Shown here: positions 6,270 to 62,700 of the stretch, in pieces
Layout of the letters: each line of letters begins with the position of its first letter
Position numbering within the stretch: the stretch's first letter is position 1
NCBI GenBank assembly: GCA_004431415.1
Contig: QPMI01000472.1
Span: forward strand, 1-64,000
Length of the DNA: 64,000 bases
Direction of reading: 5' to 3'
Origin: Cyanophora paradoxa CCMP329
Taxonomy: Eukaryota; Plantae; Glaucophyta
The notes under the pieces: model-generated
What the model was told of the DNA's origin: nothing
Database searches by the model: none
The model's input: the letters and a program-made list of their open reading frames with translations, nothing else
Program-made: the position numbers and the translations under genes

Positions 6270-7290
6270 CCCCCACCCTACACCCCACCCTATACTACAA
6301 TCTCGTTATTTCTATACATATTTACTATCTAATTTAATAGAGTTTATACATTGAAATAAGTGAGGTGTATCGATAAGTAATACAGGGTGGGGAGGTGGGG
6401 TTGGGTGGGGTCTTTTTTGCCCAAAAATATTTGACCCCCAAAAATTTAAGGGATTCAAAAAAATGCCCACCTCACCCCACTTACCCCACCCTATCGAAGT
6501 CCGCACGATATCATAGTAGGCTACATCGGGATTGCGATCATATCACAGTGTATACAGTGAGGGTGGTGCCCCACTTTCTCACCCACCCTATCGATTCGCG
6601 ATTCAGGGATCGCGAAATATACAGCACATGATACTTGTTTTTCTTAGTGATCGCGCCGTTCTAATACGATCTGAATATATCATATCTCGTCGGTATCACG
6701 TCGGTTCAATATCGTAATTATTAAATGGTTGGCTGATACCACTTTCACACCCCACCCTCACACCCCACCCGGTATTAATTTAACATACATAATCTCTATA
6801 CTTTATACATTAATTACATTGAAATCAATCATAAATATAATAAAAGATACAGGGTGGGGTAAGTGGGGTTGGGTGGGGTCTTTTTTGACCAAGAATTTTT
6901 GAGGGGGAATTATTTTAGGGAATTCAAAAAAATGCCCCACCTCACCCCACCCGCCCCACCCTATCGAAGTTATCGAAGTCCGATAAGTATCAAACCGGAA
7001 GTAAAAATAACACATCATGATTTTATGTGTGCCATCTTAGATTGGACTACCATACCGATACCACTCACACCCCACCCTCACACCCCACCCAGTATTAATT
7101 TAACATACTCAATCATACATATTTATATTTAAATTACATTGAAATCAATCATAGATAAAGAGAATAATACAGGGTGGGGTAAGTGGGGTTGGGTGGGGTC
7201 TTTTTTGACCAAGAATTTTTGGGAGTGAAACATTTTAGGGAATTCAAAAAAATGCCCCACCTCACCCCACCCGCCCCACCCTATCGAAGC
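6270..7290. repeat. Element A subterminal region: three copies of a GGGTGGGG-iteron / AT-rich spacer / CCCCACCC module
   Basis: Copies at about 6385-6491, 6852-6961 and 7172-7281, each preceded by CCCCACCCT(C)ACACCCCACCC; copies 2 and 3 nearly identical. Confidence 0.85.
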
Positions 7291-21957: not shown

Positions 21958-22053
21958 ACACATATTGAAAAACGAATTTAAATCCCTTCGTTCATCTCGA
22001 TCGCTTCGCGATCTCGATTCACTCTGGATTTAAATTCGTTTTTCAATATGTGT
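21958..22053. repeat. Terminal hairpin, left end of element B
   Basis: Perfect 28-bp arms 21958-21985 and 22026-22053 around a 40-nt cap containing GATCGC-TTC-GCGATC. Confidence 0.95.
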
Positions 22054-22735: not shown

Positions 22736-22739
22736 GAAG

Positions 22740-22947
22740 TAGGCATCTTTGGTAGGCGGTTTAGGCGGTTAGGCACTTCTTAATCGAGAATTAAAAAGAA
22801 GTCCCAAATACATCAACTTGTGTTTTTCAAAACGTTGATTTTAGTTTTTATAGAGAATTTCCAGAAAAGGTGCCTAAGTGCCTAACGTCAATTAAAAGTG
22901 CCTAACTTCAATTAAAAAGTGCCTACTTCGATTTTTAAAGTGCCTAC
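22740..22947. promoter_or_regulatory. Putative replication origin, element B subterminal copy (TAGGC iterons / AT-rich / GTGCCTA iterons)
   Basis: Close reverse-complement match to 58849-59042. Confidence 0.6.
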
Positions 22948-25740: not shown

Positions 25741-26570
25741 ACACATATGAATATTCATATTTTAATCCCTCGGCGTTCCGCCTCAGGATTAAAATATGAA
25801 TATTCATATGTGTGATTCGATGTTATATCAATAAAATCGATTAATTTATTTGAATTTTCACATGAATTTTCATATTTTTATATGCAATTTCAATTAATTT
25901 AATCGATATTATATCGATAAACTCGATTAATCGATATTGTATCTTAATTGTAGTTAATCGGAATTATATCAATAACTTCGATTGATCTTAATTGAATTCT
26001 AAATGAATCTAATCGGAATTATATCAATAAATTCGATTAAATCATGTTCTTTTCCGATTAAATCAATTAAATATTTAACTTTGTTACCATAAGTGGTCTA
26101 AGTTGACTCACTTTTCATAAACATTTTGAACTCTTAGTCTCCTTGAATTTCTTAAGATGACTCAACTTAGTCAACTTAGTCAACTTTGTTACCATAATCA
26201 ATCAGGGTGGACTCACTTTTAGATCAACTTTGAAATTTCAAGCAAAATCAACTTTGATTTCAAAAGTGGATCTTCTAAGTGGACTCAAAATGTTCACTTT
26301 GTGATACATGTTAGCTCAAATCCTTACTGTTTATGGTCAGGGTTGACTAAGTGGGGGGAGTTGACACATTTTGTGAAATCCTTTTTAGAAAACTTTTGGT
26401 CCCAAATATTTCCTGTGAAATTTGAGTCAACTCAACCCACTTAGTCAACCCTTGCATTGAATTCGTAACAAAATCCATATACTTTTACTACTTTTACGAT
26501 TAATATGAGTCAACCTTGAGTCCACTTAAATATAAATATTATATAATAGGGGGAATCTAGGGCAGATGCT
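25741..26570 (+). repeat. Left TIR of element C (hairpin 25741-25813, ATCGA-rich tract, GTTGACT/GTGGACT iterons)
   Basis: Reverse complement of 52042-52871; identity ends after ...GGCAGATGCT (26570). Confidence 0.96.
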
Positions 26571-42468: not shown

Positions 42469-42697
42469 TTTAATCGAGTTTACCAGTGATGAACCTGTTA
42501 CTGAGGGGTCTATAAGACACATTCTGGCAATGCAGAAACGATATAGAGATGACCCAGCCTATAGAGAGTATAAAAAGCAGCAAGCCTTGGCATCCTATTA
42601 TCGAAGAAAAGCCCAAAAAGAGGAGCAGAGACCCAGAGGGAGACCGATTAAATATTATTTGCCTACTGATAGTAGCAATGGACCCCCAGGTCTATAA
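42452..42697 (+). CDS. Small basic AT-hook protein
   Basis: QKRY..D..YRE..K..AL..YYRRK...RPRGRP. Confidence 0.65.
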   Translation: MEDTISLIEFTSDEPVTEGSIRHILAMQKRYRDDPAYREYKKQQALASYYRRKAQKEEQRPRGRPIKYYLPTDSSNGPPGL

Positions 42698-42849
42698 GAT
42701 AATCGAGAAAAAGCGGTCTCAGTATGCCACTGAGGCAGCTATAAAAGTTTACAGACAGGAACTGGTGTTCGCAACAAAAAATGACTTAAAGAAAAAGTAG
42801 ATAGGTTGTATTGAGGAAAAATTATTTTCGTATCTACTATTAAAGAGAA

Positions 42850-43176
42850 ATGCCGAATATCCGCAAGATACTCACAGATGATGAAAAAGCAGAGAAGCTG
42901 AGACTGAAAAGGGAGCAAGATGCCCAAAGAAAACGCGAAGCCTATCATAAAAAGAAGGAGGAACGATTATCCCAAGGAGCCGCTACAGTTCACACACCAG
43001 AAGAACTCAAAAAGATTGCCCTCAGACACCAGAGGAAATACAGGGAAAATGAAGAATATCGCGAGCAGAAAAAGGCAAAAGCGCTGGAATATTACCACAA
43101 GAAGAAAGATGAACAGCCCAAGAAACCCAAAGAGCATAAACCGGTTGGAAGACCTCGGAAATATATCGAAGAATAA
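42850..43176 (+). CDS. Small basic AT-hook protein, paralog
   Basis: YREQKKAKALEYYHKKK...KPVGRPRKY. Confidence 0.7.
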   Translation: MPNIRKILTDDEKAEKLRLKREQDAQRKREAYHKKKEERLSQGAATVHTPEELKKIALRHQRKYRENEEYREQKKAKALEYYHKKKDEQPKKPKEHKPVGRPRKYIEE

Positions 43177-43394
43177 ATTCTCGATCGAAACAAATTTTGT
43201 AGAAATCGATTTGATCGGAGGCAAAAAAATGACAGCTTTCTTCCCTCTTTTTTAAAACTGTACCTATATATCGAGACAGTATCCCGACCCAAAACTACTT
43301 AAGGACTTGGCAAATAATAGGATATATATAAAAGACAATTCCTCCTTCCGAAATTATTTTCTTTGTTAAAGGTAGAAGTCCCCCAAAATCGAAA

Positions 43395-45987
43395 ATGAAC
43401 AAAATCGAGAAATTCGCCACCCCTGTTGAAAATGCTACATTCCTTAGTACTCTCATTGGTGATCGCAACAAGGTCACCCATGTATTTGATTCTGCTGAAG
43501 ATGCCCTTGAAGCAATTGATAATAGCAAGGTCAAGACCTGGGCTGAATGCATTCAGCCTGAACAAGTGACCAGAGTTTACCTGGACCTGGATAAATTCGC
43601 TGATTTGAAGGAGAATATTGCTGATAACTATGCTGAGGCTGAAACTGTTGTAAGAGAGATGAGAGATAAGCTATGGAAGCGATCTGGGACCACTTCGATT
43701 AACGATATTGCTGTTGCAGTTCGCCATAGAAGGGTTTATTTGATCAAGGAGGATGTCACCAAGTTCAAGATCTCAGCCCACTTTATCATTAAGTCGCTTG
43801 CATGCAAACATGAAGATATCCCAAGCTTTTCAAAGCTATGGGATTGGTGAAAAATGAGGATTATGACAGTGGAGTTTACAGCTCCACACAGAACCTTATC
43901 TGCCTCAATTGCTGCAAAGGTGAGACTCTGGATGCTCAAAATAAATCAAAGAAAGATGTTGATAAAAACGTTTGCTTTAAGAAATTCGTTGACTGTGACA
44001 AAGTGTTAATGCGAAATGAGGACTTCTTTGTATCTTTCTTCTCAGCTTCTACTAAACTTGTGGATGAATCGAATATTTCTGCATTCGCAAATTATAGCCC
44101 TGAGCCAAAACCAGTTAAAAGGAGCCAAAAAGTGATAAAGTGAAGACTGAGAAGGTAGAAGCTGAAAAAGACACTGAACCCGAAAACCCTGTTACTTTCG
44201 AACTGCTACAAAGTGTTATAATGGGTCTGAATGGTGAGAGAGCTAATGAGTATAAAACTTGGATTGATGTAGGACTGGTCATCATCAATGTTGGGGAAGA
44301 CAACAAGTTCACCCCTAAAATGCAAGCTGAACTCTTCCACCAATTCTCAGAACAGAGTGACAAGTATGATTATGATGAATGCCAGGAGAAGTTTACACAG
44401 CTTCGCAGAAGCAAGAAGAAGGCTGAGCCTGGCAAAGTGTTGACCTTCAAATCCTTGGTTTATTGGTTGAGCAAAGATAACAATGAGCTTTTCAAGGAAC
44501 TCTTCCCCAAAAAGTATGCATTCCTACCAGAGGACACAGATGAAATCGATTACAAGACTGCAAGTATCCCTCCTTTGGCTGAACATTACAATGTGCATAA
44601 GAGGTATTTCAATGCTCGCATGCATCATGTTGAAAATGTTGGTTGTGTGATGCTCTGGGATGAACAACTACTTTGCTGGATGCCCAAAGATATTGGGAAG
44701 CTCTCTACAAAGCATTTCCCCCACTTGATGCATAAGGTGATTGTGAATGAGGGGACAGATAATGAGAAAGAGAAATGGGAGCAATCATTTAGGAAATGGA
44801 TTGTGGATCCCACAGCCACAAGATCTACTTATATGGATTTCCTCCCACCTCCTGCTACTCTCAGTGCCAAATGCAAGTCTGTATTTAATCTCTATCCAGG
44901 AATGAAGGTCGACCATCAGCAATTCGAAAATGCCCCAGAGGATGTAACTGCTGAGATGATTAAGCCTTTCCTAGATCACCTGTTCTTAATGTCTGGTGAG
45001 GATCAAAATACCTATGAATATCTGTTGAAATGGTTTGCCCACATGCTGCAAAAGCCTGGGGAACTCAATGGAGTATCCTTAATCTTCATTGGTGAGCAGG
45101 GAACTGGTAAAAATGTGTTGGTTGATACTTTCCAAAAGAAGATACTTGGAGATGCCCTAAGTTATGCAACTGGAAAGCCAAAAGAGGATCTGTTTGGTCG
45201 ATTTGCCCACAATAGAGAGGATAAGATCTTGATTGTTGTCAATGAAGCCTCAGGCAAGGACACATTCGAAAATAATGATATGCTTAAGGATCTCATAACT
45301 TCTGATAAGATTGTAATTGAACACAAAGGGATAGATTCATACACAAAAAGCAACTTTGCCAGGATTATATTTACCAGCAATAATAACATTCCAGTGAAAA
45401 TTGAAGCTGGAGATAGGCGATTTGTGGTTGTTGAAGTTAGTAAGAAATTCGCAAAGGATAGGTCATACTTCCTTCCACTTGTAAAATGGCTTAATGATCA
45501 CTGCAATATTCGAAACATTGCCCACTATTTGAGAACCAAAGTTGACTGTGAGGATGTGAACTGGATTGCTGATAGACCCCTTACAAATAAATACTATTTA
45601 GCCCAGCAGGTATGCGCCCCAATCATTCTTATGTTCACTAAGTGGCTTGTGGATCGAGGCTTAATTTCCGAGAATAAATGCAAGTCTGGTAGCCTTGTGG
45701 AAACCTGGAAGTGGTTCCAGGAGTTCATTACCAGCAACAAATATAAAAACGATTATAATAGTCGCAGATATTATACTGAAATGAGAAGTGTTACATATAT
45801 TCAAGTGAAAACTACAAATGGCAAACAATACTATCATTTCCTATTCCCACAAGTATTTGAGGAATTCAGAAAGATGAAGCTTGTAGATGATGAGACTATT
45901 GAGGAAGAAGCTAATCCAAGGATGAAACAGGACCTACCTGCTGCTGATCCTGATGCATCAGATTATGATTCTGATGTTGAAGTTTAG
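43395..45987 (+). CDS. AEP primase - PriCT-2 - SF3 helicase, element C (three ORFs, two frameshifts)
   Basis: RVYLDLD, KISAH, D.GVYS..Q; Y.TWIDVG...FHQFS..S.KYD..EC; Walker A GEQGTGKN, VVNE, IFTSNN, DRRF. Confidence 0.85.
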
Positions 45988-46180
45988 GTTTACTCAAAAG
46001 TGGACTCATGGTTGACTCAAATTTATCATAAAAGACCCAAACAGTCTTTTATTTATGGTTTATTTATCGATTAGGTTGACTAAGTGGGGGGAGTTGACTC
46101 ATTTTTTCACAGATTCTAAAAAAGGACTCTGCCCTAAAAAGAAATAAAAAGTGCCTCAACTCCACCCACTAAGTCAACCA
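45988..46180. promoter_or_regulatory. Putative replication origin directly downstream of the helicase (GTTGACT / AT-rich / AGTCAAC)
   Basis: 46074-46180 resembles TIR segment 26341-26450 (GGTTGACTAAGTGGGGGGAGTTGAC...ACCCACT.AGTCAACC). Confidence 0.6.
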
Positions 46181-46230
46181 AAAAATGATTTAAGAGATAG
46201 AAAAATATATTTATATGTAAGTAGTAAGAA

Positions 46231-46581
46231 ATGGCTGGAACAGATCATGATTCTGGATCGATCTATATGATTGAGAGTCAGGAAATGAACAAAATCTACA
46301 TAGGGAGAACCTCACAGCCACTACACAAAAGATGGAGACAACACAAATCAGGTGAAATGAAATCCACAGCAGACCTATGCAAGGCTGCTGATGTCAAGTT
46401 TTCAGTCTTGTATTCAAGCAAGAATGGTGGGCATGAAGACCTAATGAACAGAGAAGCATATTACATGTATCTGTTTGAACCTTGGATAGTCAATTTACAA
46501 AAACCGAAATCAAGATTTAGAATTAATCGGTTTTTGCGATTCCATTCAGAGGAAGCCAATGGATCCATTAAAACATTTTAA
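46231..46581 (+). CDS. GIY-YIG endonuclease
   Basis: GSIY...IYIGRT...L..R..QH...RE..Y...VN. Confidence 0.85.
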   Translation: MAGTDHDSGSIYMIESQEMNKIYIGRTSQPLHKRWRQHKSGEMKSTADLCKAADVKFSVLYSSKNGGHEDLMNREAYYMYLFEPWIVNLQKPKSRFRINRFLRFHSEEANGSIKTF

Positions 46582-46642
46582 AAATGCGTTTAGAACATCC
46601 TAAAATAAAATATCCCCTTAGAATAGGAACAAGTTAGGAATA

Positions 46643-49600
46643 ATGCCCCGAATTACCAACAAACTCATAAGGGAGAAGAAATGGGAACTCATGGGATTGC
46701 TGGGAACACTATATGCAGCCCATGAAATAACAGAGGCTGAATATGACCGGGAAATAGATTTAATTGCAAAGGGTAGACCCACTTTAGCCAGATTAACCAG
46801 AAAAGCAAATAACCTATATGATAAAATTGAAACCTTGGATGAACTGGATCGCCTAAGGCAAATAGAACCTGAGGCAGAAGATGGAACAGCCATGAATGAA
46901 TTATATCGCTGGCTCACTTACAGAGCCAGAAGGGAAGTTGTTGTAGATGTGATTGAATTCCTGGACAGAATTGCTACATCCCTTCCTAATCGATTAAAGC
47001 AGGGTTTAGATCAATTCAGGGCAATCAAGGTTCGCTTGTCTTTTATCTGCAAGTTCGTAAAAGTAAGCAATCCGCAGGTTTGGATATCGAAATACATTTA
47101 CAGCGATTATTTTGTACTAACCAGATCGAGAAATATTCGAACTGAGCTGAATAAAGCAGCCCAAATATGCCAGGAGCAGATGAATGTGGTTGATAGCTAT
47201 CGCTTAGAAAGAATTGAAATACTCAGAGTGGCTATTATGAGTTATGCTCCAACTGGTGGATGCTTTCTACAAACCCCAGAGTGGATTGCTAGGAAGAGAG
47301 CCACAGTGAATATTCGAAATATTGATGATTCCTGCTTCGAAAATGCAATTTTGGCATATATTCACAGAAAAGCGATAAACTCCCATAAGAGGAATGAGCT
47401 TTCACAATATCGCAAATGGAAATACTCAGCAATCGCTTATAATCCGCTGGCTCTCAATTTCGACAATATCCCATTCCCTGTTGCCTGTGATGCTGAAATA
47501 ATTGATAAATTCGAGGCTCAAAATGCAGGCATTAGCATTAATATATTTGGAATCGATGGAGAGGTTATTTATCCCCTGCATCAATCAAGTAACCCAGGCA
47601 GAAAGCATAAGGTTAATCTCATGCTGATATTTGATGATGAAGGGAATGGTCACTATATTACAATCATGTCCCTTTCAAGGCTATTGAAAGTAAACCATGA
47701 AACATACAATGATCAGAAGTTACACTACTGTGACACATGCTTATCTCGATTCAGGTCTGAGGCTAAACTCACTGCTCATGTGGACTCAAACAGATGCATT
47801 GATTGGAGACTCTCAAAGGGAATCACACCTAAACCTGAAACCACCATAGAGTTTGGATTGAAAAACCTCAGGAAAACTGTCTGGCTTCCTGTTGTGGTCT
47901 ACTGCAAGATTGAACATAGAAGCATCCCCATTGATGCATCGAAATCTAAGAGGGAAGTTTCAGCAGTCAACCTTAGAATAGTCACTGGGGCAGATGTTCA
48001 AGATTTTCGATTTGAGGGGCAGGATCCAATGGGAGATCTGTTTGAATGCTTGGAATCCAAAGCAAGAGAGCTGATCGATTTCCTGTTTACCAATATTCCC
48101 ATGAATGAACTCACAGATGAGCAGAAAGCAATTTACAAGGCTACTAAACACTGTTACCTTTGCAGTGAGAGGTTCACCAAAGAGAACTTCAAATGCAGGG
48201 ATCATGATCATCACACAGGCAATTATATTGCTCCTGCATGCAGAAACTGCAATCTCCATAGGAGAATCTCAAAGCAAACCAAAGTTGCAGTGGTTGTTGA
48301 CCAAATGGATGACTGTGGGACATTCATTTTCAGAAAAATAGCAGGCATGGGTGATAAAAAGCGAATCGAAATCCTTTCGAAAAACTTTGATCAATACCTT
48401 TCATTGCAATGGGGTCTTTACAAGTTCATTGATGCAAGCAATTTCATGGATTTCGGAGCTGCTGATGTGACTGAGTTAATGAACAAATTCCAGGCTTTTA
48501 GAAGGCTTTCACACTCAGTATATGGACTTGACCCAGTTCATTATGTATCTGCACCTGGGCTATCTTGGGATGCTATGTTAAGGACCACCAAGGCAAAAAT
48601 AGAGCTTATAAGTGATGTAGAGCAATACGAATTTGTTGAGAGGGGAATCAGGGGTGGCTTTGCAACAATGCCTTGTAGGTATGCTGAGGCTGATGGTGAG
48701 AACTCCCATATTATGCTGTTTGATGCTAACAACTTGTATGGCTACTGTTTGAGTCAGCCAATCCCAGTTGGTGATTTTAGATGGGAGACCGAATTCAACC
48801 CACAAGATAACAGATCCAGTTTCCTAGAAGTTGATCTGGATTACCCAATTAGGCTGTTTCTAGATCACAGTGATTTTCCCCTAATTATTAACAAGAAAAT
48901 AGTAGAATATGCAGAATTATCACAATATCAAAAAAGCCTATTGGATCTCTCAGGAGAAGAGCTTGATAAAACCCCTAAGCTAACTGCAACCTTTGGTTCT
49001 GTGACCAACTATGTAGTTTCTGAGCCTCTTCTACAATACATGTTAGCTAAAGGTGTGAAACTAAAGAAGGTTCACAGGGTCCTATCATTTACTGTGGCTC
49101 CTGTAATGAAACCCTACATTGAGCTGAATACTGATATGAGAAGGAAAGCAGTGAATAAATTCGAGGCTGATTTCTATAAGCTCATGAATAATTCAATCTA
49201 TGGGAAATGCATTGAATCATGTAGAGGTCGATCTGTGGTTAAGATTGCCAACACTGAGAAGCTATTTATGAAATATGCAGCTTCCCCATTGGTGAAATCA
49301 ACAAGTCCCATAAGTGAAAGGGCAGTTGCCTTTGAGTTTTACACAAAACATGTGAAGCTAGATAAGCCTGTTGCTATTGGGGCTTATGTTTTGGATACTG
49401 CCAAACTGCATAACTACAAGTTCTTCTATGATACTGTAAGGTCCCAGTGGGCAAAAGCAAAGTTACTATTCCATGATACTGATTCCTTTTGTCTATATAT
49501 CGAATCTCAGACCCTCCAAAAAGACCTAGAGAATATATCCTTTAATCTGGACTTAGGGGGATCTAACAGAATGACCCCAGGTAAATACAAAAATGAGATG

Positions 49601-49888
49601 CCAGGTTCTGCTATATTGGAGTATGTAGGTCTGAGAGCCAAAGTTTACAGTTTCAGAACTGCTGAGATTGAGAGAAGTAAGCTATCTGGGACTTCCACTG
49701 AGGAACTCCAATTCAATGATTTTAAGGAGTGTTTATTTGCAGGTATCAGCAAGACTGTGACTGCAAAGCAGAAAAGAAGGGCAGATCACACAATAATAGA
49801 TACTGTGAGTAGAAGGGTTGCCCTAAACTGCTTTGATGCAAAGAGATACATCTTACCAGATGGTATTAATTCTGTTCCTTTTAATTAA
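46643..49888 (+). CDS. Protein-primed-type family B DNA polymerase, element C
   Basis: DANNLYG, KLMNNSIYGK, HDTDS, K.KNE, GLRAKVY; N-terminal OTU-like DDSCF...GHY and EndoVII-like C..C...RDHDH.TG....AC..CN. Confidence 0.93.
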   Translation: MPRITNKLIREKKWELMGLLGTLYAAHEITEAEYDREIDLIAKGRPTLARLTRKANNLYDKIETLDELDRLRQIEPEAEDGTAMNELYRWLTYRARREVVVDVIEFLDRIATSLPNRLKQGLDQFRAIKVRLSFICKFVKVSNPQVWISKYIYSDYFVLTRSRNIRTELNKAAQICQEQMNVVDSYRLERIEILRVAIMSYAPTGGCFLQTPEWIARKRATVNIRNIDDSCFENAILAYIHRKAINSHKRNELSQYRKWKYSAIAYNPLALNFDNIPFPVACDAEIIDKFEAQNAGISINIFGIDGEVIYPLHQSSNPGRKHKVNLMLIFDDEGNGHYITIMSLSRLLKVNHETYNDQKLHYCDTCLSRFRSEAKLTAHVDSNRCIDWRLSKGITPKPETTIEFGLKNLRKTVWLPVVVYCKIEHRSIPIDASKSKREVSAVNLRIVTGADVQDFRFEGQDPMGDLFECLESKARELIDFLFTNIPMNELTDEQKAIYKATKHCYLCSERFTKENFKCRDHDHHTGNYIAPACRNCNLHRRISKQTKVAVVVDQMDDCGTFIFRKIAGMGDKKRIEILSKNFDQYLSLQWGLYKFIDASNFMDFGAADVTELMNKFQAFRRLSHSVYGLDPVHYVSAPGLSWDAMLRTTKAKIELISDVEQYEFVERGIRGGFATMPCRYAEADGENSHIMLFDANNLYGYCLSQPIPVGDFRWETEFNPQDNRSSFLEVDLDYPIRLFLDHSDFPLIINKKIVEYAELSQYQKSLLDLSGEELDKTPKLTATFGSVTNYVVSEPLLQYMLAKGVKLKKVHRVLSFTVAPVMKPYIELNTDMRRKAVNKFEADFYKLMNNSIYGKCIESCRGRSVVKIANTEKLFMKYAASPLVKSTSPISERAVAFEFYTKHVKLDKPVAIGAYVLDTAKLHNYKFFYDTVRSQWAKAKLLFHDTDSFCLYIESQTLQKDLENISFNLDLGGSNRMTPGKYKNEMPGSAILEYVGLRAKVYSFRTAEIERSKLSGTSTEELQFNDFKECLFAGISKTVTAKQKRRADHTIIDTVSRRVALNCFDAKRYILPDGINSVPFN

Positions 49889-49891
49889 GAG

Positions 49892-51277
49892 ATGCCAGCA
49901 ACTGGAAGAATAGTAAGGAGAACCACTGAGCAACTGCAAGGTAACCTACTGCCTATCACAGTTCCAAAGGAGGAAAAAGGGGAATCTCGAATTGTCAAAA
50001 AGTCTGAGATGAAAGAGCTTGTCCCAGTAGAGATCCCAGTTGCTATTGCAGTGAAAGAAACTAGCAAGATTGCCAAGAGATTCTATGATGTGAGAACTGG
50101 TTACAAAGGGCTTCAAGCTATGAGGGCTGAGTTACCAGATGAATCCTATAAGCAGTTGCAAGAGTTCTATAAAAAGCAAGAGGTAGTTCAGATCAATGCA
50201 CCTGCTATATCTAGGAAGAGAGATCCCATGGTCCCAATAAGGCAACCCCTTGATACCTATGTGATTGATTTGCTCTTTTTCCCAGCTTATAAGAAACAAA
50301 ACAATGGCTATGATACCTTTATGACTGCAATGGAATCAACACTGAGAACTGGGTATATCATACCTATAAGGGATAAATCAGCTCTCACTACATTAGCTGC
50401 ATTTAAACAGCTTGAGATGAGAGTAGCAAGACCCATAGTAAAAGTTCAATCAGATGCTGGAAGTGAGTTCCAAAATCGAATATTCCAGGAGTATTTATCT
50501 AGTAAATACATAGAACACCAAGTGAGTGGAACTGCTGACCACAGAAGCCAAGGTCGAATTGAAGCCTTTAACAAACAGATTAAGAGATTGATTACAAACT
50601 ACTGCATAGCCAATAATACAGCTAGATTCTTTGATGTGTTAGGTGATATTGAGTATAATTACAATAATACAGTTCACTCAGCTACTAAGATGAAGCCAGG
50701 CGAAACTACAGAGGAGCATTATAGGTATATAGTGGGATTAGAAGATGAAAGATTCAAGAAATCAATAGCTTACCTTGATACCATGCAGCCTGGCATGTTT
50801 GTTAGAGTGAAAGTTGAGAAAAATCCCTTTGCTAAACAGGGTAACAATTGGTCTAGGATGGTTTACACTGTTGATAGTAGGGAAGGCTTTAAGTTTAAGC
50901 TAAGGAGTCCCACTGGTGAGATCATAGAAAACAGGTTTGCTTTCCATGAGCTGTTGCCTGTGAATGCAGTTGAATATCTAGAAACCCCTACAGTGGATGC
51001 CTTAGAGCAAGCCAAGGAGGAAGCCAGGGTTGATGCTGCTATAAGGAGAGAAGGCATAGAAGCTGCTAATGAAGTCCCAGATAAGCCTTTGATAGAGGCT
51101 AGAAAGGAGAAGGCTGGGAAAGTTAACAGGGAACTCAAAAAGCTCACTATAGCAGGGACACAGAAACTTTCTGAGGTTAATAGCCAGAGATGGTATAATG
51201 ACTTTCAGACTACTAAGGAGTCATATACAGCCCCTAAACCTCAGAGAACACTAAGAGAAAGGACCAAAACTAGCTAG
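49892..51277 (+). CDS. Retroviral-type (rve) DDE integrase, element C
   Basis: VIDL, SDAGSEF, IEAFNKQIK, YNNTVHSATKMKP. Confidence 0.93.
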   Translation: MPATGRIVRRTTEQLQGNLLPITVPKEEKGESRIVKKSEMKELVPVEIPVAIAVKETSKIAKRFYDVRTGYKGLQAMRAELPDESYKQLQEFYKKQEVVQINAPAISRKRDPMVPIRQPLDTYVIDLLFFPAYKKQNNGYDTFMTAMESTLRTGYIIPIRDKSALTTLAAFKQLEMRVARPIVKVQSDAGSEFQNRIFQEYLSSKYIEHQVSGTADHRSQGRIEAFNKQIKRLITNYCIANNTARFFDVLGDIEYNYNNTVHSATKMKPGETTEEHYRYIVGLEDERFKKSIAYLDTMQPGMFVRVKVEKNPFAKQGNNWSRMVYTVDSREGFKFKLRSPTGEIIENRFAFHELLPVNAVEYLETPTVDALEQAKEEARVDAAIRREGIEAANEVPDKPLIEARKEKAGKVNRELKKLTIAGTQKLSEVNSQRWYNDFQTTKESYTAPKPQRTLRERTKTS

Positions 51278-51533
51278 TTTGCTAGGCGAAAACTCGTTTT
51301 TTCCAAATATATGTATGACTGATATACATATATGCACATGATATACACATAGTCTTGTAGATCTTATCAAGCGCTTCACAGCGATATGCAGAACGTTGCG
51401 TTTTGATGATCTGGTGATGAGATATAACAGTTTGAAGATGCCGATTATCGATTTTTCAAAATTTCGGCGAGATTTCTAAAATGATGCATCATAATGATGT
51501 AATAATAATGATGCATCATAAACATATAATTAT

Positions 51534-51761
51534 GTCACCGGTGACTTTATTTGTCACCGATGACTTAATTTATTTGTGTGATTGTGTCACCAGTGACTTT
51601 AATTTGTCACAGGTGACTCTATTTTTTTTGTGATTGTGTCACCAGTGACTTAATTCCTTGTGTGATTTTGTCACCGGTGAGTTTAATTTGTCACCGATGA
51701 CTTTAATTTGTCACCGGTGAGTTTAATTTGTCACCGATGACTTTAATTTGTCACCGGTGAC
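51534..51761. repeat. Array of ten GTCACCGGTGAC-type palindromes
   Basis: Starts at 51534, 51553, 51586, 51606, 51638, 51670, 51690, 51710, 51730 and 51750. Confidence 0.9.
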
Positions 51762-52041
51762 TTATGATTATTATTATTAATATATATATATATACATAAC
51801 AACAATGACGACATCGCCGTCATCGTCATGATCTCCCGAGTCACATGGTGTGTCATATATATCATATACATACGTCAAATCATGATGACGTCATTGAATG
51901 AAACCCCATACAAAACACTAAAACGCATGTATCTCTTCACCAACTCATCATCTGACAAAAACAAAAACAGATTCGGAATCCTCTTAACGAGGCCTGCGTG
52001 ACGATGTAAGTATCATAGGCTCAATAATTCATTAATTTGTA

Positions 52042-52871
52042 AGCATCTGCCCTAGATTCCCCCTATTATATAATATTTATATTTAAGTGGACTCAAGGTT
52101 GACTCATATTAATCGTAAAAGTAGTAAAAGTATATGGATTTTGTTACGAATTCAATGCAAGGGTTGACTAAGTGGGTTGAGTTGACTCAAATTTCACAGG
52201 AAATATTTGGGACCAAAAGTTTTCTAAAAAGGATTTCACAAAATGTGTCAACTCCCCCCACTTAGTCAACCCTGACCATAAACAGTAAGGATTTGAGCTA
52301 ACATGTATCACAAAGTGAACATTTTGAGTCCACTTAGAAGATCCACTTTTGAAATCAAAGTTGATTTTGCTTGAAATTTCAAAGTTGATCTAAAAGTGAG
52401 TCCACCCTGATTGATTATGGTAACAAAGTTGACTAAGTTGACTAAGTTGAGTCATCTTAAGAAATTCAAGGAGACTAAGAGTTCAAAATGTTTATGAAAA
52501 GTGAGTCAACTTAGACCACTTATGGTAACAAAGTTAAATATTTAATTGATTTAATCGGAAAAGAACATGATTTAATCGAATTTATTGATATAATTCCGAT
52601 TAGATTCATTTAGAATTCAATTAAGATCAATCGAAGTTATTGATATAATTCCGATTAACTACAATTAAGATACAATATCGATTAATCGAGTTTATCGATA
52701 TAATATCGATTAAATTAATTGAAATTGCATATAAAAATATGAAAATTCATGTGAAAATTCAAATAAATTAATCGATTTTATTGATATAACATCGAATCAC
52801 ACATATGAATATTCATATTTTAATCCTGAGGCGGAACGCCGAGGGATTAAAATATGAATATTCATATGTGT
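52042..52871 (-). repeat. Right TIR of element C (hairpin 52799-52871)
   Basis: Reverse complement of 25741-26570. Confidence 0.96.
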
Positions 52872-52877
52872 ACACTT

Positions 52878-53908
52878 TCCATGTGCCTTCTGATTTCCTT
52901 GCTCATTTCCCTCTTATCTATTACAGTGAGGATCAACTCGCCAAGAAGAAGCGTTCAATGGGAATGGTTCATGGTATCCCTGCCCATGGAACCAACCGAC
53001 TTGGTGGGTCATTTTTCACTGAAATCCCAGTCCCATGGCTAAACCACTACCTACCTCTTGGTGCTCTCTCAGGAGAAATGGTGGTAACTGTCTGGTTCAA
53101 GGATGCTGGAAAGGGTTATGTTGAGACTTCTTATGGTGGTCGTGCTCTTCCTGTTGTTGGTGGAACAGCTGCTGATAAGACAGAGGATGATGGACTTGGT
53201 GCTACTGCTAATGCTACTCTTGCCCATGTTGGTCAACAAATCACCACTTTTGGAATTGGTGCAACAACAACCCCCGAAATTAAAGTCACTTCTCCTCGTC
53301 TTTACATGCATGCTATTAATGTTTCTGATGAACTGTTTGCTACTGTCATTGAGAAGGTGAAGACCACTGGTATGGCTATTCCTGCTCTGGATATTGGTTT
53401 TGTTGACAGTGTCAATTTTGCTGCAAAAGGCAATGCTCAACCAAATCGTATTAACCTGTCACAGATCTCTGGTCTTGTCTATGGTCTTCTTGTTTCAGTT
53501 CGTGATGCCGCAGGTATTGATGGTTTCAATGGTTCCCACAGTGTCCTAAAAACGCATGCTAACTCAAAAGACATTACTTTCACTGTTGAAATTAATGGTC
53601 AACGTCTCTATGCTACTGAGCCCATCCCTCTCCTCAAAGGTGCCGAATTAATTGCGGATGCCTTCAAGTGCTCAAATATGGACAAGGTTGCAGACAAATA
53701 TGTCCTCAGTGGTCTACCGTTCTGTGTTGATGGAGAGAAAGCGATTCGCAACATTGCCCAGTCTGGCTATGTTGATCTCACGAACTCCTCCTCCTCTTTC
53801 CTCACTCTATACATGCCTTCTGACCAGACAATCACTGTTAATGTTCGTGCTCTCATGCACAGTTTCATTATAGTCGATAAGGACGGCCTGAGGCGAATCA
53901 ATCTGTAA
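52878..53908 (+). pseudogene. Major capsid protein of element B, 3' part
   Basis: Resumes FHVPSDFLAHFP after the TSD and is colinear with the MCP of C. Confidence 0.88.
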
Positions 53909-55543: not shown

Positions 55544-55777
55544 ATGGATTTTCTGCGCAAAATCATTGAAATGTTTAATCTCCACATTGTGAGCAATTGT
55601 CACAGTGGTTGCTGTGACACCAAAGTCGAAATCGAGTTCTCAGACACTGAAAGCCATGGATCTGGTGGAAGGAGATTATCCACAGACTCGGTGGATTTCG
55701 AAGAGCATATTAAGACAGAGACAGTGAGGCGAAGGTCTGTATCTTTCACAGATCCGAAATTAAATCTCGGTAATTAA
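55544..55777 (+). CDS. Small CHSGCC protein, element B
   Basis: Ortholog of 42196-42468. Confidence 0.65.
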   Translation: MDFLRKIIEMFNLHIVSNCHSGCCDTKVEIEFSDTESHGSGGRRLSTDSVDFEEHIKTETVRRRSVSFTDPKLNLGN

Positions 55778-55978
55778 TATCGAATGCTCAGTCTCCCTGA
55801 GATCTATGCTATCCTGGACAGGAAATCCGCTGAATATGCAACAGAAGCCGCAATAAAAAAGCGTAGACAGGAACTGGTCTCGATCTGCAAAAAATGACAA
55901 GGGATTTAAGGGTAAGGTGTGTTTGATTGGTGAACCCGGACAAATTATTTTCTCGTCCAAATATAAGGAACATATCAA

Positions 55979-56206
55979 ATGGAAACTGAATCTGTGGTCG
56001 AATTCGAACTTGCAATGAGCGAAATGGATCCCAATGAGAGGAAAAGGTTGTATGACCGCTTGTACTTCCAGAAACGTTATCAAGATGAGGAGTTCCGTGA
56101 ATTATATCGTAAAAAGGCACTGGAACGATATTATCGCAGGAAAGCTGCTGAGATGGATCCCAATAATCCAGTAAAACGCCCAGTTGGTCGTCCCAGGAAA
56201 TACTGA
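55979..56206 (+). CDS. Small basic AT-hook protein, element B
   Basis: QKRYQDEEFRELYRKKALERYYRRK...RPVGRPRKY. Confidence 0.7.
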   Translation: METESVVEFELAMSEMDPNERKRLYDRLYFQKRYQDEEFRELYRKKALERYYRRKAAEMDPNNPVKRPVGRPRKY

Positions 56207-56393
56207 ACCGCCCCCAAAGTCCCAAATATCCGCTGAATCCTTTTTGTTACCATGATCGATCGACTTTTCGATGGATCATTACCATATATCGAGCGCCAAT
56301 CGGAAAACCCAAAGGTATTTAAAGGTTAGGCGCCAAAAAATGACAAGGATCCGGAGAAATTAATTTCTCCATTAAGTATAAGAAGACCCCAAG

Positions 56394-58784
56394 ATGTTCA
56401 ACTCTCAGCAACCGAACGGACTTAAAATCGCTCTCTTTGAGAAGGTGGATCGCTCCACTCTCAAATACCTGATTGATAATTTCGAGACTTTGGAGTATCG
56501 ACCTGATATTGATGCAACTGCTACTCTCACCCTTCTCCAACGTTATTTCAAGGATTTGAAGCGAGATGGGCGCATTGAAGTTAAATATCATCAATGCAAG
56601 CATAATACTGGTCGTTATTTCGTGAATCTTGAACACATCAAGAAGAAGCAAGCATCAATGCAAGGAATGCCCAGAGAATTCCGCCACACTCTTGCTCGCG
56701 ATTTCTACTACGATATCGATATGAAAAATGCGCATCCCACACTTCTCATTCAGTATTGTGAAAAAAATGAAATCGTTTGTGAGGGTCTCACTGATTATGT
56801 CGACAATCGTGATAGTATCATTGCTGATATAAGCAAGAAATCGGACTTTCTCGCGAAGATATCAAGAAAGCGTTTCTTTCTGTTGTAAACGGGGGTGGGG
56901 GCTCAATTGATAACAAGGAGCTGCTGAACCACCCCAAGTTCAAAGCAGTTAAGAACGAAATCACAGGAATTCACGCTCAAATTGCAAGCATGCCCGAAAA
57001 CCACAACTTCTTCTTGATTTGCAAGCGAAAGAAGGAGTATAACATCTTTGGTTCAACCATTAATATGGTTCTTTGCAAATTGGAGAATGAATGTCTGATT
57101 GCGCTTTGTCAGTATTTAACCTCACTTGCTGTGAAAGTCGGTGTTCTCGTTTATGACGGTTGTATGGTTGAAAAAGCCCTTGAATTACCCGAAACTCGTC
57201 TCCACAATATTCTCTGTGATGCTACCAAGTATATTGAGAATATCACTGGCTACAAGATTGAGTTGATGATTAAACCAATGGATCAAGGATTTACGATTCC
57301 AACAAATTCCAAAAGTGTATCCTCTCCTCTTAATATTGTTCGGGATGATCGTGAAGCTGCTCTCACATTTGTTAAATCGATTGAGGGGCGAGTGGTCATG
57401 TCTGATGGTCGTATATTCGCTCAGACAGACGATTTTCTGTGGACTGATGATTCCACAATGGTCTACAATATAATGTTGAAATTGTGCATGCAGTGCTTCA
57501 TGTTCAAGGAGGATGACAAAGGTAACTTGAAGCCATATTCTACCAATCTTACTGGGGCAGATCGAATTATCAAGACAGCCAAAGCATTTCTGCCCAATAA
57601 TCGTGTGTTCTACAATGATATTATGTGGTCATCGACCATTGGGAAATTGTGCTACCGAAATGGTGTGTATGATTTCGAGACAAAGAAGCTCACACCATGG
57701 GACAAATGTGACAAGATCTATTCTACCACTCGAATTGAGAGGGATCTTCTTGTTGACAAAGATGGATATGTGATCAAGCCATCTGATTCGGATATTCAAA
57801 CCCTTTTCGACAAGATTCTGGAACCCGTTTTCGGAACTGATTCGATTTCTTCTGCTCTGGAATTCACAGCTCGTGCAATGGCTGGGAAATACGAAGATAA
57901 ACAGTGGGGATTATCAATTGGTGAACGCAATTGTGGTAAGGGGTTTATGTGAATCTCAATGAAAATACCTGGGGAAGTGGATATGTGCACACCATCAGTG
58001 GGGAGGCATTCTTGCTGAATAAGAACTCAGATGACAACGATACCTCCAAGTTAAAGTGGATGAAACCTTGTGAATTTCGTCGTCTGACATTCACCCAAGA
58101 GATGAAATTCGATGTCTCAAACACAAATATTAAGGTGAATGGTGCAATGATCAAAAAGAAGGAATCTGGTGGTGATGTTCAATGCATGCGTGTTCTTTAT
58201 GAAAATGAGGTCAATATTCGCCTCCAAAGTCGTTTGTGGATGATCATGAATGATGTTCCACCCATTTCCCCATCTGATACCCTTCAAACCATGGTATTGT
58301 TCAAGCACCCCACAAATTCGTTGATCAAAAGACTGTTGAGGAAATGAACTCTCCTTGTGTGAGATTGGCTTCGGAAGATATCAAGAGTGTTCTGCTAAAA
58401 AGTCCTGAGATAATTAGAGCATTCGAATGGATGGTGTTTGAAGCCTACAAATCTCAGAAATTCGTGGTGTCTGGGAAGGTTGCTGAGGATATTAATGAAT
58501 TCCGGGAAGATGCAGGTGATGAAATGTCTCTGATCAGATCAGTGTTCGAATTCACTCGAAATTCATCCGATTCTGTAACTTCCAAGATGGTTGAGCAAGA
58601 GATCAAGCAACTGAGACTGAATATGTCTGCAAATCGCATTAAAACTGTGATGGGTTTGCTTGGAGCGAAATATGACAAGAATGCAGTTCGCAAGAAGGTT
58701 GGTACTGGTTATGATCGTGGCTACAAGGGTGTGAAGAAGATTGATAAGACACCTACTGTTGTTGAGTTTGATGATGATGAGTAA
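56394..58784 (+). CDS. TVpol (PolA-derived primase-polymerase) fused to D5-like SF3 helicase, element B (four ORFs, three frameshifts)
   Basis: GRYF...SMQGMPREFR...YYDIDMKNAHP (motif A), LENECL, LVYDG (motif C); NGVYDF, Walker A GERNCGKG. Confidence 0.8.
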
Positions 58785-58848
58785 AATACTTCTGTTATGA
58801 TTCTGATTTCTATATACATTCTTTTTATACCTTACTGGAAATGGACAG

Positions 58849-59042
58849 TAGGCACTTGAATAATCGAAGTAGGCACTTTTCAATTGAGGTTAGGCACTTT
58901 TAATTGACGTTAGGCACTTAGGCACCTTTCCTGGAAACTCTCTATAAAAATAAAATCAACGTTTTGAAAAACGCGACTTAACCTTTTTAAGACTTCTTTC
59001 TTACTCTCGATTCAAGAGTGCCTAACTGCCTACAAGTGCCTA
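58849..59042. promoter_or_regulatory. Putative replication origin downstream of the helicase (5x TAGGCAC, 92-bp AT-rich spacer, 3x inverted TGCCTA)
   Basis: TAGGCAC at 58849, 58870, 58891, 58911 and 58919; inverted copies at 59018, 59026 and 59036; inverted duplicate at 22740-22947. Confidence 0.65.
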
Positions 59043-59418
59043 CAAAAAATGATGCGATTTCAGAGATGGGATCCAAGAGCACCACAATGACCACATTCTC
59101 AAAAGAAGATTTCGCCCGACTCAATCATGAATGCTATGGATCTGATCCAGTTCTGACAGATGCAGAGCAAAGAAAAAAGTGCTTCGGTTGATCTTGGAGA
59201 AAGGAGGATGTAAATATGATCAGATGCCCAGGCATTTCAGAAAGAAATTAGATAGATACTGCGAAAATGGTAGAGGTCACCAGTGTGCAAATGATTTCGA
59301 GGAAATGAGAGCGGGGCAGGGTCGTCATGATGTGAACCATGCAAGAAAGCGACTTCAAGATAAACTTTCAAAACGCGTTCAAAACGCCCGAAAATAATAT
59401 GTTCCCTTAAAGTAAAAG

Positions 59419-62400
59419 ATGCCCCGCCAATCCAATAGAATCATCAAAGAGAAGAAAAACGAAATACTCGGTCTTTTAGGAACCCTTTTAGTCACTGGTG
59501 ATATTACAGAATTCGAATATGATCGCCAGGCAGCAATCTTGGATAGGAGACCAAGATTATCTCAACTCACAGAAATTACAAATCGACTGTATGATCGTTT
59601 TGAGAAAATGGAGGAATTCAGGGATGAAGGTTTAAGGTTGGGAGCGATTGCACCAGAGATTGAAGATGGGGAAGCAATGAACAAAGCATATTCTTGGTTG
59701 ACCTATCGAGCCAGAGGGGAGGTTATCCAAGATGGGATTGAATTCTTGGAGAGAATTGCACCCACTCTACCTCAGAGACTCAGACAGAAACTCCAAGACC
59801 TGCGAGCAATTAAAACTCGGTTGACCTTCATTTGTAAATTCACCAAAGTGAGTGATCAAAGGGTGTGGATCACCAAATTCATTTACAGTGATTACTTTGT
59901 CATCACAAGATCACGAAATATTGATGTTGAACTGCGAAATGCCCTTCAATCTATGCAGGAACAGATGATGCAGGTTGACAGTTACAGACTGGATCGCATT
60001 GAGATGCTGAGAGTGGTAATAATGTCTTATGCTCCTGTGGGTGGTTGCTTCTTCTCGACACCTGAGTGGATTGGATCAAAGAGAGCAACTGTGAATGTCA
60101 AGAATATTGATGGTCAAGACTGCTTCAAGTATGCAATCTTGGCTTACCTGCACCGAAATGATATTAATAAACACAAGAGCAATGAACCCAGCCAGTATAG
60201 AAGATGGTTAAACGAACTCGATTTCGAGGGCATCCAGTTTCCAGTTGCCTGTGATGCAGAGGTTATTGATCGATTTGAGGAGCAGAACCCTGAACTCTCA
60301 ATCAACATTTATGGTGCAGATAATCAAGCACAGTGTTTCTATCCTCTCCACCAATCCAGCAACCCCAGGAGAAAGACCAAGATTAACCTTTTATTAATCG
60401 AAAACGAAGAGGATGATAGAGGGCATTATATCACCATCATGTCTCTGAGTAGACTTCTGAAAACCACCTTTGATAAAGCCCATGATGGTCGCATTTATTA
60501 TTGTGAGACCTGTCTGTCTCGTTTCAGAACTCAGGAGAAGCTGGATGTACATATAGAAGCAAATCGCTGCATTGATTGGAGGGAAAGCAAAGGTAAATGT
60601 CCGAAATCTGGAAGTCACATTGCATTTGGGCTTCAACACCTTCGCAAAACTGTGTGGCTTCCCACTATCTGCTATGTGAAAATGGACAGTCACTCGGTTC
60701 CAATTGATGAGAACCGCAGTAAGAGAGAGGTTAAATCGGTTTCTCTAACAGTTGTGATGGGGGATGAGGTGATCTCTCATTATTTCGAGGGATCAGATCC
60801 ACTTGGTGCTCTGTTTACCACTCTCACAGAGATCAGACCCCAAGTAATCCGCACTCTATTCACCAATATTCCAATGCACCCACTCACAGAGGAGCAGAAA
60901 GCACAATACAAGATTACTAAACACTGTTATATCTGTGCTGAACGATTTACCCATGAGAATTTCCCAGTGAGAGACCATTGTCATCAATCAGGAGCATTTA
61001 TTGGGAAAGCATGCAGAAACTGCAATCTCCACAGGAGAATCTCGAAACAAACCAAGGTTGCAATAGTGGTGGATCACATGGATGAATGTGGACACGAAAT
61101 ATTCCGCAAAATTGCACAGCAAGATGATAAACTTCGTGTTGAGATTCTGAGCAAGAATTTCGATCAATACCTCTCTCTGCAATGGGGCATGTGGAAATTC
61201 ATAGATGCTTCGCACTTCATGGACTTCCAGGCAGTGGATTCTGGTGATCTTATGAGTAAATTCCAGACATTCCGAGAATTGGCGTTTACACAATATGGAT
61301 TGGATCCTGCCCATTATGTGAGCGCTCCTGGATTATCCTGGGATGCAATGCTCATTTATACCAGAGCAAAGATCGAGCAGATCAGTGATGTAGGGCAATA
61401 CGAATTCATTGAGAGAGCAATTCGAGGTGGGTTTGCTACAATGCCTACTCGATATGCAAAGGTGGAAAACCCAGATGACCATATAGTTCTCTTGGATGCA
61501 AATAATCTGTATGGTTTTGCTCTCAGTCAAGAACTGCCCAATGGCGATTTTCGATGGGAAGATGTCACAGAGGCACTTAAAGACACCTCTGGACGAAGTG
61601 CTTTCATTGAAGTTGACCTGGAATACCCACAAACTCTCACAGATCATTACGATTTTCCACTTGTAGTAAATAAAGAGCAAATCAGCACCGAAATGCTGGG
61701 TGAGTATCAACGAAAACTACTGGATATCACAGGTGAGAAGATAAGCAAAGACCCCAAACTCACAGCAACATTCTCACCCAAAAACAACTATGTGATCTCC
61801 CAACCTCTCTTGGTCTATCTTGTGAGCAAAGGTATTATAATTAAGAAGGTTCACAGGGTTCTCTCATTTGCAACCTCTGCATTCATGAAGAGTTATATTG
61901 ATCTAAATACGAAACTGAGGCGCCAATCTGTCACCAGATTCGAGTCTGACTTCTTTAAATTAACGAACAATGCAATCTATGGTAAATGCCTCGAATCATG
62001 CAGGGGTCGATCTGTGGTAAAGATTGCTAACAGTGAGAAACTCTGCAAGAAATATGCTGCAAGTCCATTGATCAAGGCAACCAATGTATTAAACGAAAAT
62101 GCTGTTGCCTTTGAGATGTACTCAAAGCATGTTCACTTAGATAAACCAGTAGCAATTGGTGCTTTTGTGCTGGATTTCGCCAAACTCCATAATAGCAGGT
62201 TCTTTTATGATGTGGTGAGGAGAACTTGGGAAACAGCAGAGCTGCTGTTCCATGATACAGATTCTTTCTGTCTACTGCTGCATACCAATGATCTAAATAA
62301 TGAGATGAAGCGAATTGCTGAACACCTGGATTGCAGTAATTATGATCCAGCCCACCCTCTCTTTGATAGGAGTAATCGCTTGATTCCAGGTAAATATAAA

Positions 62401-62700
62401 AACGAGTTCCCCCATGCAAAGATTGTGGAGTATGTAGGTCTGAGATCGAAACTCTATGCTTTCAGAACTGAGACCTTTGATAAAATAAAGATGTCTGGTA
62501 CTTCCTCAAAAGACGTTCACTTTGATGATTTCAAGAGATGCTTGTTTGAAGGCATCACCAAAACAGTAGCAGTAGTAAACAAGCGAAGACAAGACCACAA
62601 CCTATATGATTTGGAGAGCAGAAGGGTGGCTCTAAACCAACTCGATAGCAAAAGGAAGATATTAGACGATGGAATTCACAGCATTCCATTTGGGCTCTAA
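59419..62700 (+). CDS. Protein-primed-type family B DNA polymerase, element B
   Basis: DANNLYG, KLTNNAIYGK, HDTDS; same domain order as 46643-49888. Confidence 0.93.
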   Translation: MPRQSNRIIKEKKNEILGLLGTLLVTGDITEFEYDRQAAILDRRPRLSQLTEITNRLYDRFEKMEEFRDEGLRLGAIAPEIEDGEAMNKAYSWLTYRARGEVIQDGIEFLERIAPTLPQRLRQKLQDLRAIKTRLTFICKFTKVSDQRVWITKFIYSDYFVITRSRNIDVELRNALQSMQEQMMQVDSYRLDRIEMLRVVIMSYAPVGGCFFSTPEWIGSKRATVNVKNIDGQDCFKYAILAYLHRNDINKHKSNEPSQYRRWLNELDFEGIQFPVACDAEVIDRFEEQNPELSINIYGADNQAQCFYPLHQSSNPRRKTKINLLLIENEEDDRGHYITIMSLSRLLKTTFDKAHDGRIYYCETCLSRFRTQEKLDVHIEANRCIDWRESKGKCPKSGSHIAFGLQHLRKTVWLPTICYVKMDSHSVPIDENRSKREVKSVSLTVVMGDEVISHYFEGSDPLGALFTTLTEIRPQVIRTLFTNIPMHPLTEEQKAQYKITKHCYICAERFTHENFPVRDHCHQSGAFIGKACRNCNLHRRISKQTKVAIVVDHMDECGHEIFRKIAQQDDKLRVEILSKNFDQYLSLQWGMWKFIDASHFMDFQAVDSGDLMSKFQTFRELAFTQYGLDPAHYVSAPGLSWDAMLIYTRAKIEQISDVGQYEFIERAIRGGFATMPTRYAKVENPDDHIVLLDANNLYGFALSQELPNGDFRWEDVTEALKDTSGRSAFIEVDLEYPQTLTDHYDFPLVVNKEQISTEMLGEYQRKLLDITGEKISKDPKLTATFSPKNNYVISQPLLVYLVSKGIIIKKVHRVLSFATSAFMKSYIDLNTKLRRQSVTRFESDFFKLTNNAIYGKCLESCRGRSVVKIANSEKLCKKYAASPLIKATNVLNENAVAFEMYSKHVHLDKPVAIGAFVLDFAKLHNSRFFYDVVRRTWETAELLFHDTDSFCLLLHTNDLNNEMKRIAEHLDCSNYDPAHPLFDRSNRLIPGKYKNEFPHAKIVEYVGLRSKLYAFRTETFDKIKMSGTSSKDVHFDDFKRCLFEGITKTVAVVNKRRQDHNLYDLESRRVALNQLDSKRKILDDGIHSIPFGL

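Follow-up and report, generated by a model that had tools for sequence, protein, structure and literature searches.

Iteron arrays behind primase-helicase genes of Polinton-like elements in Cyanophora paradoxa as candidate replication origins

Elements and genes of the locus

The window, which is the whole 64,000-nt stretch of Cyanophora paradoxa DNA analysed here, holds three low-GC elements (A, B and C) in surrounding DNA that is GC-rich and intron-containing in appearance (Table 1). C encodes, by Pfam, a Pox_A32 ATPase, a PriCT-2/DUF5906 helicase, a GIY-YIG nuclease, a DNA polymerase of type B (PolB) as well as an rve integrase, with matches to PF03175 at E 8e-13, to PF04665 at E 3e-12 and to PF00665 at E 1e-4, the last falling below its cut-off; the gene order of B is identical. 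The arms of the C TIRs are 831 nt long and 100% complementary, and with PolB, rve, the A32 ATPase, TIRs and a short target duplication C fits a Polinton or Polinton-like virus (PLV). No close family member with the backbone of B and C was found, the nearest relative of the PolB being 49% identical.

The ORFs ahead of the ATPase genes (39203-40568 and 52805-53908) have no Pfam match and are assumed from their position to be candidates for a putative capsid gene, the product expected being a double jelly-roll major capsid protein. C is inserted into B's homolog of this gene (25398-25799 and 52805-53908), so that one related element is nested inside another. Pfam assigns to the cargo of C an S-adenosylmethionine decarboxylase-like gene (26804-27202), a fibre-like gene with an S74 chaperone domain (29572-30891) and a patatin fused to an F5/8 domain (35633-37189). 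An 86% inverted repeat (8744-8800 and 14642-14698) with purine-rich flanks surrounds ~6 kb of host-like DNA and is possibly a DNA transposon; the gene inside it is presumably of F-box/LRR kind.

Near-perfect palindromes that start with ACAC and finish with GTGT lie at all four element ends in the window (7545-7615, 52799-52871 and the two listed in Table 1); three were folded as DNA and gave z of -9 to -14. The ends of A and C match at 76% over a length of 91 nt and have small inner loops that resemble each other, and the orientation is the same at all three A and C ends. Other subterminal repeats are present: about ten GTCAC-N3-GTGAC palindromes with a 20-nt period are found immediately inside the right TIR of C (51530-51770), and repeats of a 72-nt type with GTGTCACAGAGTTGCA lie close to the left end of B (22420-22740); TGTCAC is common to both, and these repeats are possibly sites for another protein.

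Table 1. Positions of the elements, genes, arrays and terminal features in the window
Feature	Position	Strand	Method or remark
Element A, right end	up to 7615		A helicase beyond the window
A right-end module, third type, three copies (GGGTGGGG / CCCCACCC)	6270..7270		within element A
Element B	from 21958, running past the window end		right end outside the window
B left terminal palindrome (hairpin end)	21958..22053	+	DNA fold
Second copy of B array, ~780-990 nt inside B left end	22740..22947	-	alignment
Element C	25741-52871		nested in B, flanked by 6-bp target duplication ACACTT
C left TIR with terminal palindrome 25741-25813	25741..26570	+	arm alignment
C primase-helicase region, three ORFs	43395..45987	+	Pfam, structure models
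C internal module: GTGGACT/GTTGACT words and long dyad 46073-46179	45988..46180	+	word search, folding
C type-B DNA polymerase and rve integrase	46643..51277	+	B counterparts 59419-62700 and 62884 onward
C right TIR, exact mirror of left TIR	52042..52871	-	arm alignment
B block without nucleotide similarity to C block 42303-46876	55651..59661	+	blastn map
B primase-helicase gene	56394..58784	+	four reading-frame pieces: 56394-56888, 56828-57952, 57940-58347, 58278-58784
B array after the helicase: 5 TAGGCAC words, then a 92-bp spacer and 3 inverted copies	58849..59042	+	word search, shuffles

Primase-helicases of B and C

The primase-helicase of B contains a PolA-like primase, which we take to be TVpol, a D5-like SF3 ATPase and a predicted C-terminal RFX/P4-like winged helix. 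In C, the ORF at 44221-45987 encodes PriCT-2 and a DUF5906 SF3 ATPase, followed by a C-terminal domain that resembles a winged helix; neither of the two ORFs upstream has a Pfam match, and the primase part is presumed from the homolog P0121. Both genes are fragmented in this assembly.

The model of the last B ORF (pLDDT 87) has its structural matches in RFX5 (Z 8.7, rmsd 2.8, 78 aligned) and RFX1 (Z 8.4), while the P4 origin-binding domain 1KA8 scores Z 5.7, with the next unrelated row at Z 5.6; Foldseek with the same ORF returned nothing at E <=0.001, and RFX5 ranked first at E 0.11. The model of the C helicase resembles NrS-1, SaPI PriRep and poxvirus D5, and matches 7PDS and 7OLA. The two helicase classes differ, B being D5-like with a PolA-like primase and C being of the DUF5906 type; the B-class profile matches D5 at E 2e-4. 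The B and C helicases have no BLAST match to each other, and profile alignment of the two classes gives no alignment in the C-terminal part (probability 0.1). Scans of viral contigs with a single B or C helicase protein, or with a two-sequence B-class alignment, returned no relatives. Winged helices of the RFX/P4 type are described, in the available text of PMC2777425, as contacting DNA through helix 3 and the wing.

Iteron arrays of B and C

In B the forward words TAGGCAC start at 58849, 58870, 58891, 58911 and 58919 (spacing 21, 21, 20 and 8), the spacer runs from 58926 to 59017, and the inverted words start at 59018, 59026 (one mismatch) and 59036; the first of the eight words lies 65 nt downstream of the helicase stop at 58784. 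The array scores 14 against a maximum of 8 in shuffles, a score that none of 2000 dinucleotide shuffles reached. The second copy is inverted, and the arms of the two copies are 93% (109 nt) and 80% (87 nt) complementary, spacers included; since the spacers are homologous, one copy was made from the other. The coordinates and counts in the preliminary description of this array and its inverted recurrence are right. Its spacer had also been called AT-rich, as the centre of a SaPI origin is, which holds at most in a relative sense: its 68.5% AT is above that of coding DNA (58%) and within the 65-79% of the other non-coding stretches, three of four of which measured higher; it is unremarkable among the non-coding DNA of these elements.

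In four out of four runs the contigs continue from the B helicase gene as far as position 58918 of the array, within the duplicated part; because they bridge gene and array, the junction is not an assembly artefact. Contig depth, which is lower over the helicase and array of B than over its PolB, was left unused, since it cannot rank the parts.

The C helicase is followed by a different module. Words of the type G[T/G]TGACT lie at 46000, 46011, 46075 and 46093 with a single full inverted copy at 46173, i.e. 4+1 full copies plus a longer dyad, the total of five being one under the SaPI range of 6-12. By word count the internal module is weak, with p 0.01 for the exact 7-mer and p 0.31 when mismatches are tolerated; the TIR copy is significant (p 0.01) with words 4+4. 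The left TIR contains 14 GT[T/G]GA[C/T] words over 26102-26525, the module copy at 26341-26450 included, and a 43-nt block of the internal module recurs in the TIR at 86%. The recurrence of this module in both TIRs (the mirror lies near 52162-52271), as first described, is real, the module being weaker internally than in the TIR. The words are also element-specific, as had been proposed: TAGGCAC occurs once in the 27 kb of C, and GTTGACT is absent from B.

A blastn comparison of B and C gives 79% similarity as far as the genes behind the ATPase, and 65-73% from within PolB onward; the B block between, without similarity to C, contains small ORFs, the helicase, the array, the next small ORF and the start of PolB. 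Protein identity between the two elements is 90% for the ATPase, 87% for its neighbour, 75% for the integrase and 60% for PolB. In their sequences B and C are one natural case in which helicase, internal word and end word differ jointly on a common backbone, a comparison that is silent on which change came first. The array lies directly against the gene's 3' end, which encodes the winged helix, so that one recombination event could replace both reader and site. The proposal that helicase and origin are exchanged together stands insofar as helicase and module occupy the sole non-homologous block of B and C and covary in relatives; exchange as one cassette is what we infer from this.

Arrays behind helicases in relatives

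Helicase loci were taken from viral and metagenome contigs of virophages, PLVs and phages; the loci were cut at 10 kb, and many of the contigs are partial. By a first-round criterion of an exact 7-mer with at least two copies per strand, an array follows 16 of the first 25 helicase stops versus 2 of 211 other gene ends. Clustering at 80% gave 156 helicase clusters, 17 of which were dropped for short downstream DNA or for want of a full helicase match; among the 139 usable clusters a significant array is present in 60 (B-class 19/47, C-class 41/92), the strict detector finding none in 79. Where the non-coding gap is at least 150 nt, arrays are found at 52 of 108 helicases versus 21 of 257 control genes matched for such a gap and drawn from 112 of these loci, an odds ratio of 10.4; the loci are not fully independent, and the Fisher p of 8e-17 for this contrast is accordingly overstated. 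A custom profile places an A32 ATPase on the contigs of 25 of the 60 arrays, and a Pfam scan of 104 proteins places A32 or a Sputnik capsid on several array contigs and a terminase on one; as judged from these sequences, the arrays are common to virophages, PLVs and tailed phages. The layout is constant: the first word lies a median of 9 nt past the stop, the commonest periods are 9 and 7 nt, and opposite clusters are a median of 87 nt apart.

Three of the 60 arrays (the L158 paralog, L134 and L184) were left out before the class, identity and second-cluster tests, leaving 57 loci. A second cluster of the locus's own word is present in 8 of these versus 1 of 158 foreign-word controls, and subterminal duplication is not a general feature. 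Four of the second clusters repeat the array at 85-87% on the opposite flank of the helicase gene, two of these four being located at a contig end; another is within a gene, and one more arose by duplication of a whole gene. The best C-terminal matches of the B helicase, L158/L159 (32%), have three arrays of TAGGC[A/G].

Some loci have further peculiarities. In L141, L179, L114 and L096 the helicase gene sits between the 85-87% array copies, direct in two and inverted in two, in the manner of a composite mobile unit. L158 contains tandem paralogous helicase genes (6226-9009 and 9992-12334) that are 72% identical in DNA; two TAGGC arrays separate the genes, and a third follows the second gene. 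The words GGTTAC, GGTTGC, GTTGC and GGTAAC, found in L117, L120, L156, L191 and L192, presumably resemble the RFX X-box half-site, in keeping with the predicted RFX-like fold of the domain.

Wing residue and iteron word

The preliminary description expected the word to follow the type of the helicase C-terminal domain, which it does not: motif similarity is 0.41 within and 0.36 between classes. Helicase class was rejected as a predictor, with GTTGAC, as in C, also lying behind the B-class helicase of L161, and TGGAGG is found behind helicases that share 26-33% ATPase identity. Nor is there support for the idea that identity over the whole C-terminal domain outdoes that of the ATPase in predicting the word (partial p 0.10, difference p 0.56; 129 pairs, 39 loci); within clades such C-terminal identity tracks motif similarity (p 0.006), not better than ATPase identity does (p 0.56).

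A code based on one wing residue (R with TGT, K with TGG, H with TGA) was drawn from 41 C-class proteins and set down before more loci were fetched. Among these 41 training loci it is right in 18 of 29, with the failures in GC-rich phage-like rows. The held-out set consisted of 72 other C-terminal clusters, of which 22 gave a call, 18 of them with one of the residues R, K and H; for 15 of these 18 the code holds (H-A 8/8, K-G 6/6, R-T 1/4; label-shuffle p 5e-5), a result in which many loci had their best word listed before the code was noted, and among the loci fetched afterwards 5 of 6 are right. L249, with an H-protein, leaned to G, short of a call.

Descent was considered with a tree of the ATPase part alone, comprising 45 rows after the GC-rich phage-like rows (a list of 14), one wing-gap row and all uncalled rows were left out. 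On this tree K/non-K against G/non-G gives 10 independent pairs, 8.6 concordant and 0.5 opposite (median p 0.008), while the same comparison gives p 0.06 for H-A and p 0.69 for R-T. The wing column is the best base predictor of the 410 alignment columns, at 36 of 45 leave-one-out (median 19, 99th percentile 28), in a scan that takes in the training rows; the second-best column is likewise in the wing. These results suggest that one wing residue of an RFX/P4-like winged helix sets the word in DUF5906-class helicases, K with TGG and H with TGA.

The GTTGACT of C is itself off-code, its wing register being ambiguous (T or K) and the scorer calling A, not G. In the B class word similarity shows no relation to identity (Mantel p 0.33 and 0.65; 17 loci); L161 matches the C-terminus of B about as well as L158 does, yet its word differs, and the two B-class sister pairs have Q with GGTA versus V with GGTT. 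Covariation with the wing is the strongest indirect sign suggesting that the helicase reads the words, and it is shared equally by an origin and any other bound site.

Proposed role of the arrays

The arrays are likely the loading site of the adjacent primase-helicase and likely a replication origin, a reading to which a probability of about two in three is assigned. In such a mechanism the wing of the predicted C-terminal winged helix would recognise the iteron word; two hexamers, loaded on the clusters that face each other, would melt the spacer, and the primase fused to the helicase would supply primers to the PolB of the element. Helicase and array would be swapped as a single cassette, after which the array would be re-copied toward the ends; the end copies may act as additional origins, from which forks could reach the hairpin ends, or may be where the helicase loads for resolving the ends.

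The alternative that survives best, though improbable, is that the helicase binds the array with no role in initiation: the array would be an autoregulatory operator for the downstream nuclease, PolB and integrase genes, or a site for end resolution, excision or packaging, and replication would start from the termini by protein or hairpin priming. Besides accounting for the wing covariation as well as an origin does, such a site would suit a predicted domain whose nearest matches are the RFX transcription factors, array copies 0.6-1 kb from the ends, and the PolB and terminal hairpins of B and C, which make starts at the ends possible. The next gene runs in the same direction at 37 of 52 loci, as an operator would have it, but converges on the array at the other 15; together with the TIR copies of C, which lie downstream of their nearest genes, the converging genes indicate that the arrays are not simply promoters. 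A terminal copy, moreover, was not seen in most relatives, and facing clusters directly after rep are the layout of the tested SaPI origin, as described in the available part of PMC9371898.

Still less probable is an origin of the pRN1/BIP-1 type, a stem-loop or cruciform in which the fold-back structure would be decisive and the words secondary. In the portion of PMC4234260 available, pRN1 has a stem-loop origin on the 3' side of a gene for an AEP-SF3-winged-helix protein, and the internal module of C folds as a long stem (z -5.7 as RNA; B z -2.8), but folding is expected of any inverted array. A stem needs neither tandem direct copies at 7 and 9 nt nor unequal sides (5+3), and the covariation of residue and base suggests that the duplex is read.

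Transcript ends of giant viruses follow a hairpin rule, and the least probable account, that the arrays are terminators or polyadenylation hairpins or neutral repeats travelling with the helicase gene, would fit arrays that begin right after the stop codon and are able to fold, as well as kin that have both helicase and downstream DNA in common, yet other gene ends of these loci rarely score (21 of 257), residue and base switch jointly in independent sister pairs, and the copies in the ends of A and B are distant from any gene end.

Known systems and significance

For helicase loading at the arrays, the closest parallels are the SaPI/PICI and P4 systems. The P4 origin has two sites, ori1 and crr, and two such separated arrays would parallel the internal and subterminal copies found here. 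The P4 alpha protein is a primase-SF3 helicase-winged helix that binds origin repeats, as given in the available text of PMC4234260 and PMC2777425; unlike the linear elements here, which have hairpin ends and PolA-like or AEP-type primases, P4 is a circular replicon with a Toprim primase. The SaPI proteins (SaPI1 Rep, SaPI5 PriRep) are likewise SF3 helicases with a C-terminal winged helix, and the part of PMC9371898 available describes short island-specific iterons directly downstream of the gene, in opposite orientation on the two sides of a spacer; the winged helix of Rep binds 6-12 of them, one hexamer being proposed per side of the centre. The SaPI-like layout claimed for the DNA after the helicase holds for B, where a predicted SF3 helicase with a C-terminal winged helix has eight facing words (5+3) downstream, and the words here are element-specific; the SaPI minimum of two opposed iterons per side is reached by B and by the TIR copy of C (4+4). 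What differs is that these are integrated elements of a eukaryote with PolB, an rve integrase and TIRs, known here from sequence alone, with the array repeated near the ends and a residue-to-base code visible across relatives. A SaPI/PICI identity, i.e. a bacterial phage satellite, is ruled out by Pox_A32, DNA_pol_B_2 and rve in GC-rich, intron-containing-looking DNA; in our analysis, the module resembles SaPI and P4 in its presumed working and is not a SaPI.

In pRN1, the origin lies directly 3' of the primase-SF3-winged-helix gene ORF904, whose domain was aligned to those of RFX and P4 (available text of PMC4234260 and PMC2777425); that origin is a stem-loop without iterons, with no clear footprint detected, whereas the modules here fold but contain iterons. 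The 'end module' hypothesis of Barth et al. 2024 (PMC11296320) sees in PLV inverted repeats the origin for the adjacent primase-helicase and supposes that replication modules are replaced; the word 'iteron' is absent from the main text, an array, an internal origin or a specificity code was not found in its available parts, and the elements described there use a tyrosine recombinase. A preprint on endogenous PLVs and virophages of Halocafeteria (bioRxiv 10.64898/2026.07.28.741278) describes swapped replication genes and similar terminal palindromes, and helicase-linked iteron arrays were not found in its accessible text. In searches of the open-licence PMC and bioRxiv literature, no description of helicase-linked iteron arrays or of a wing code was found.

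A wider proposal, possible but doubtful, is that primase-helicase and array form a self-contained replicon cassette of virophages and PLVs, in which one or two wing residues set the word; co-resident or nested elements would have private origins, as A, B and C would with their three words, much like plasmid incompatibility groups. After a swap the array would be copied into the TIRs, and a linear element with hairpin ends and its own PolB would begin replication at internal and subterminal origins loaded by the helicase, not by protein priming as is assumed for Polintons.

The candidates are exact 200-bp sequences with a predicted reader domain, and natural sister pairs in which a single wing residue and a single base are changed make the idea testable with small domains and short DNA. 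If true, the reading of the arrays as helicase-loaded origins would extend the self-loading helicase origin of SaPIs and P4 to viruses of eukaryotes, would explain how replication genes are swapped without an orphaned origin, and would connect the RFX fold with a code for origin recognition that is still in use.
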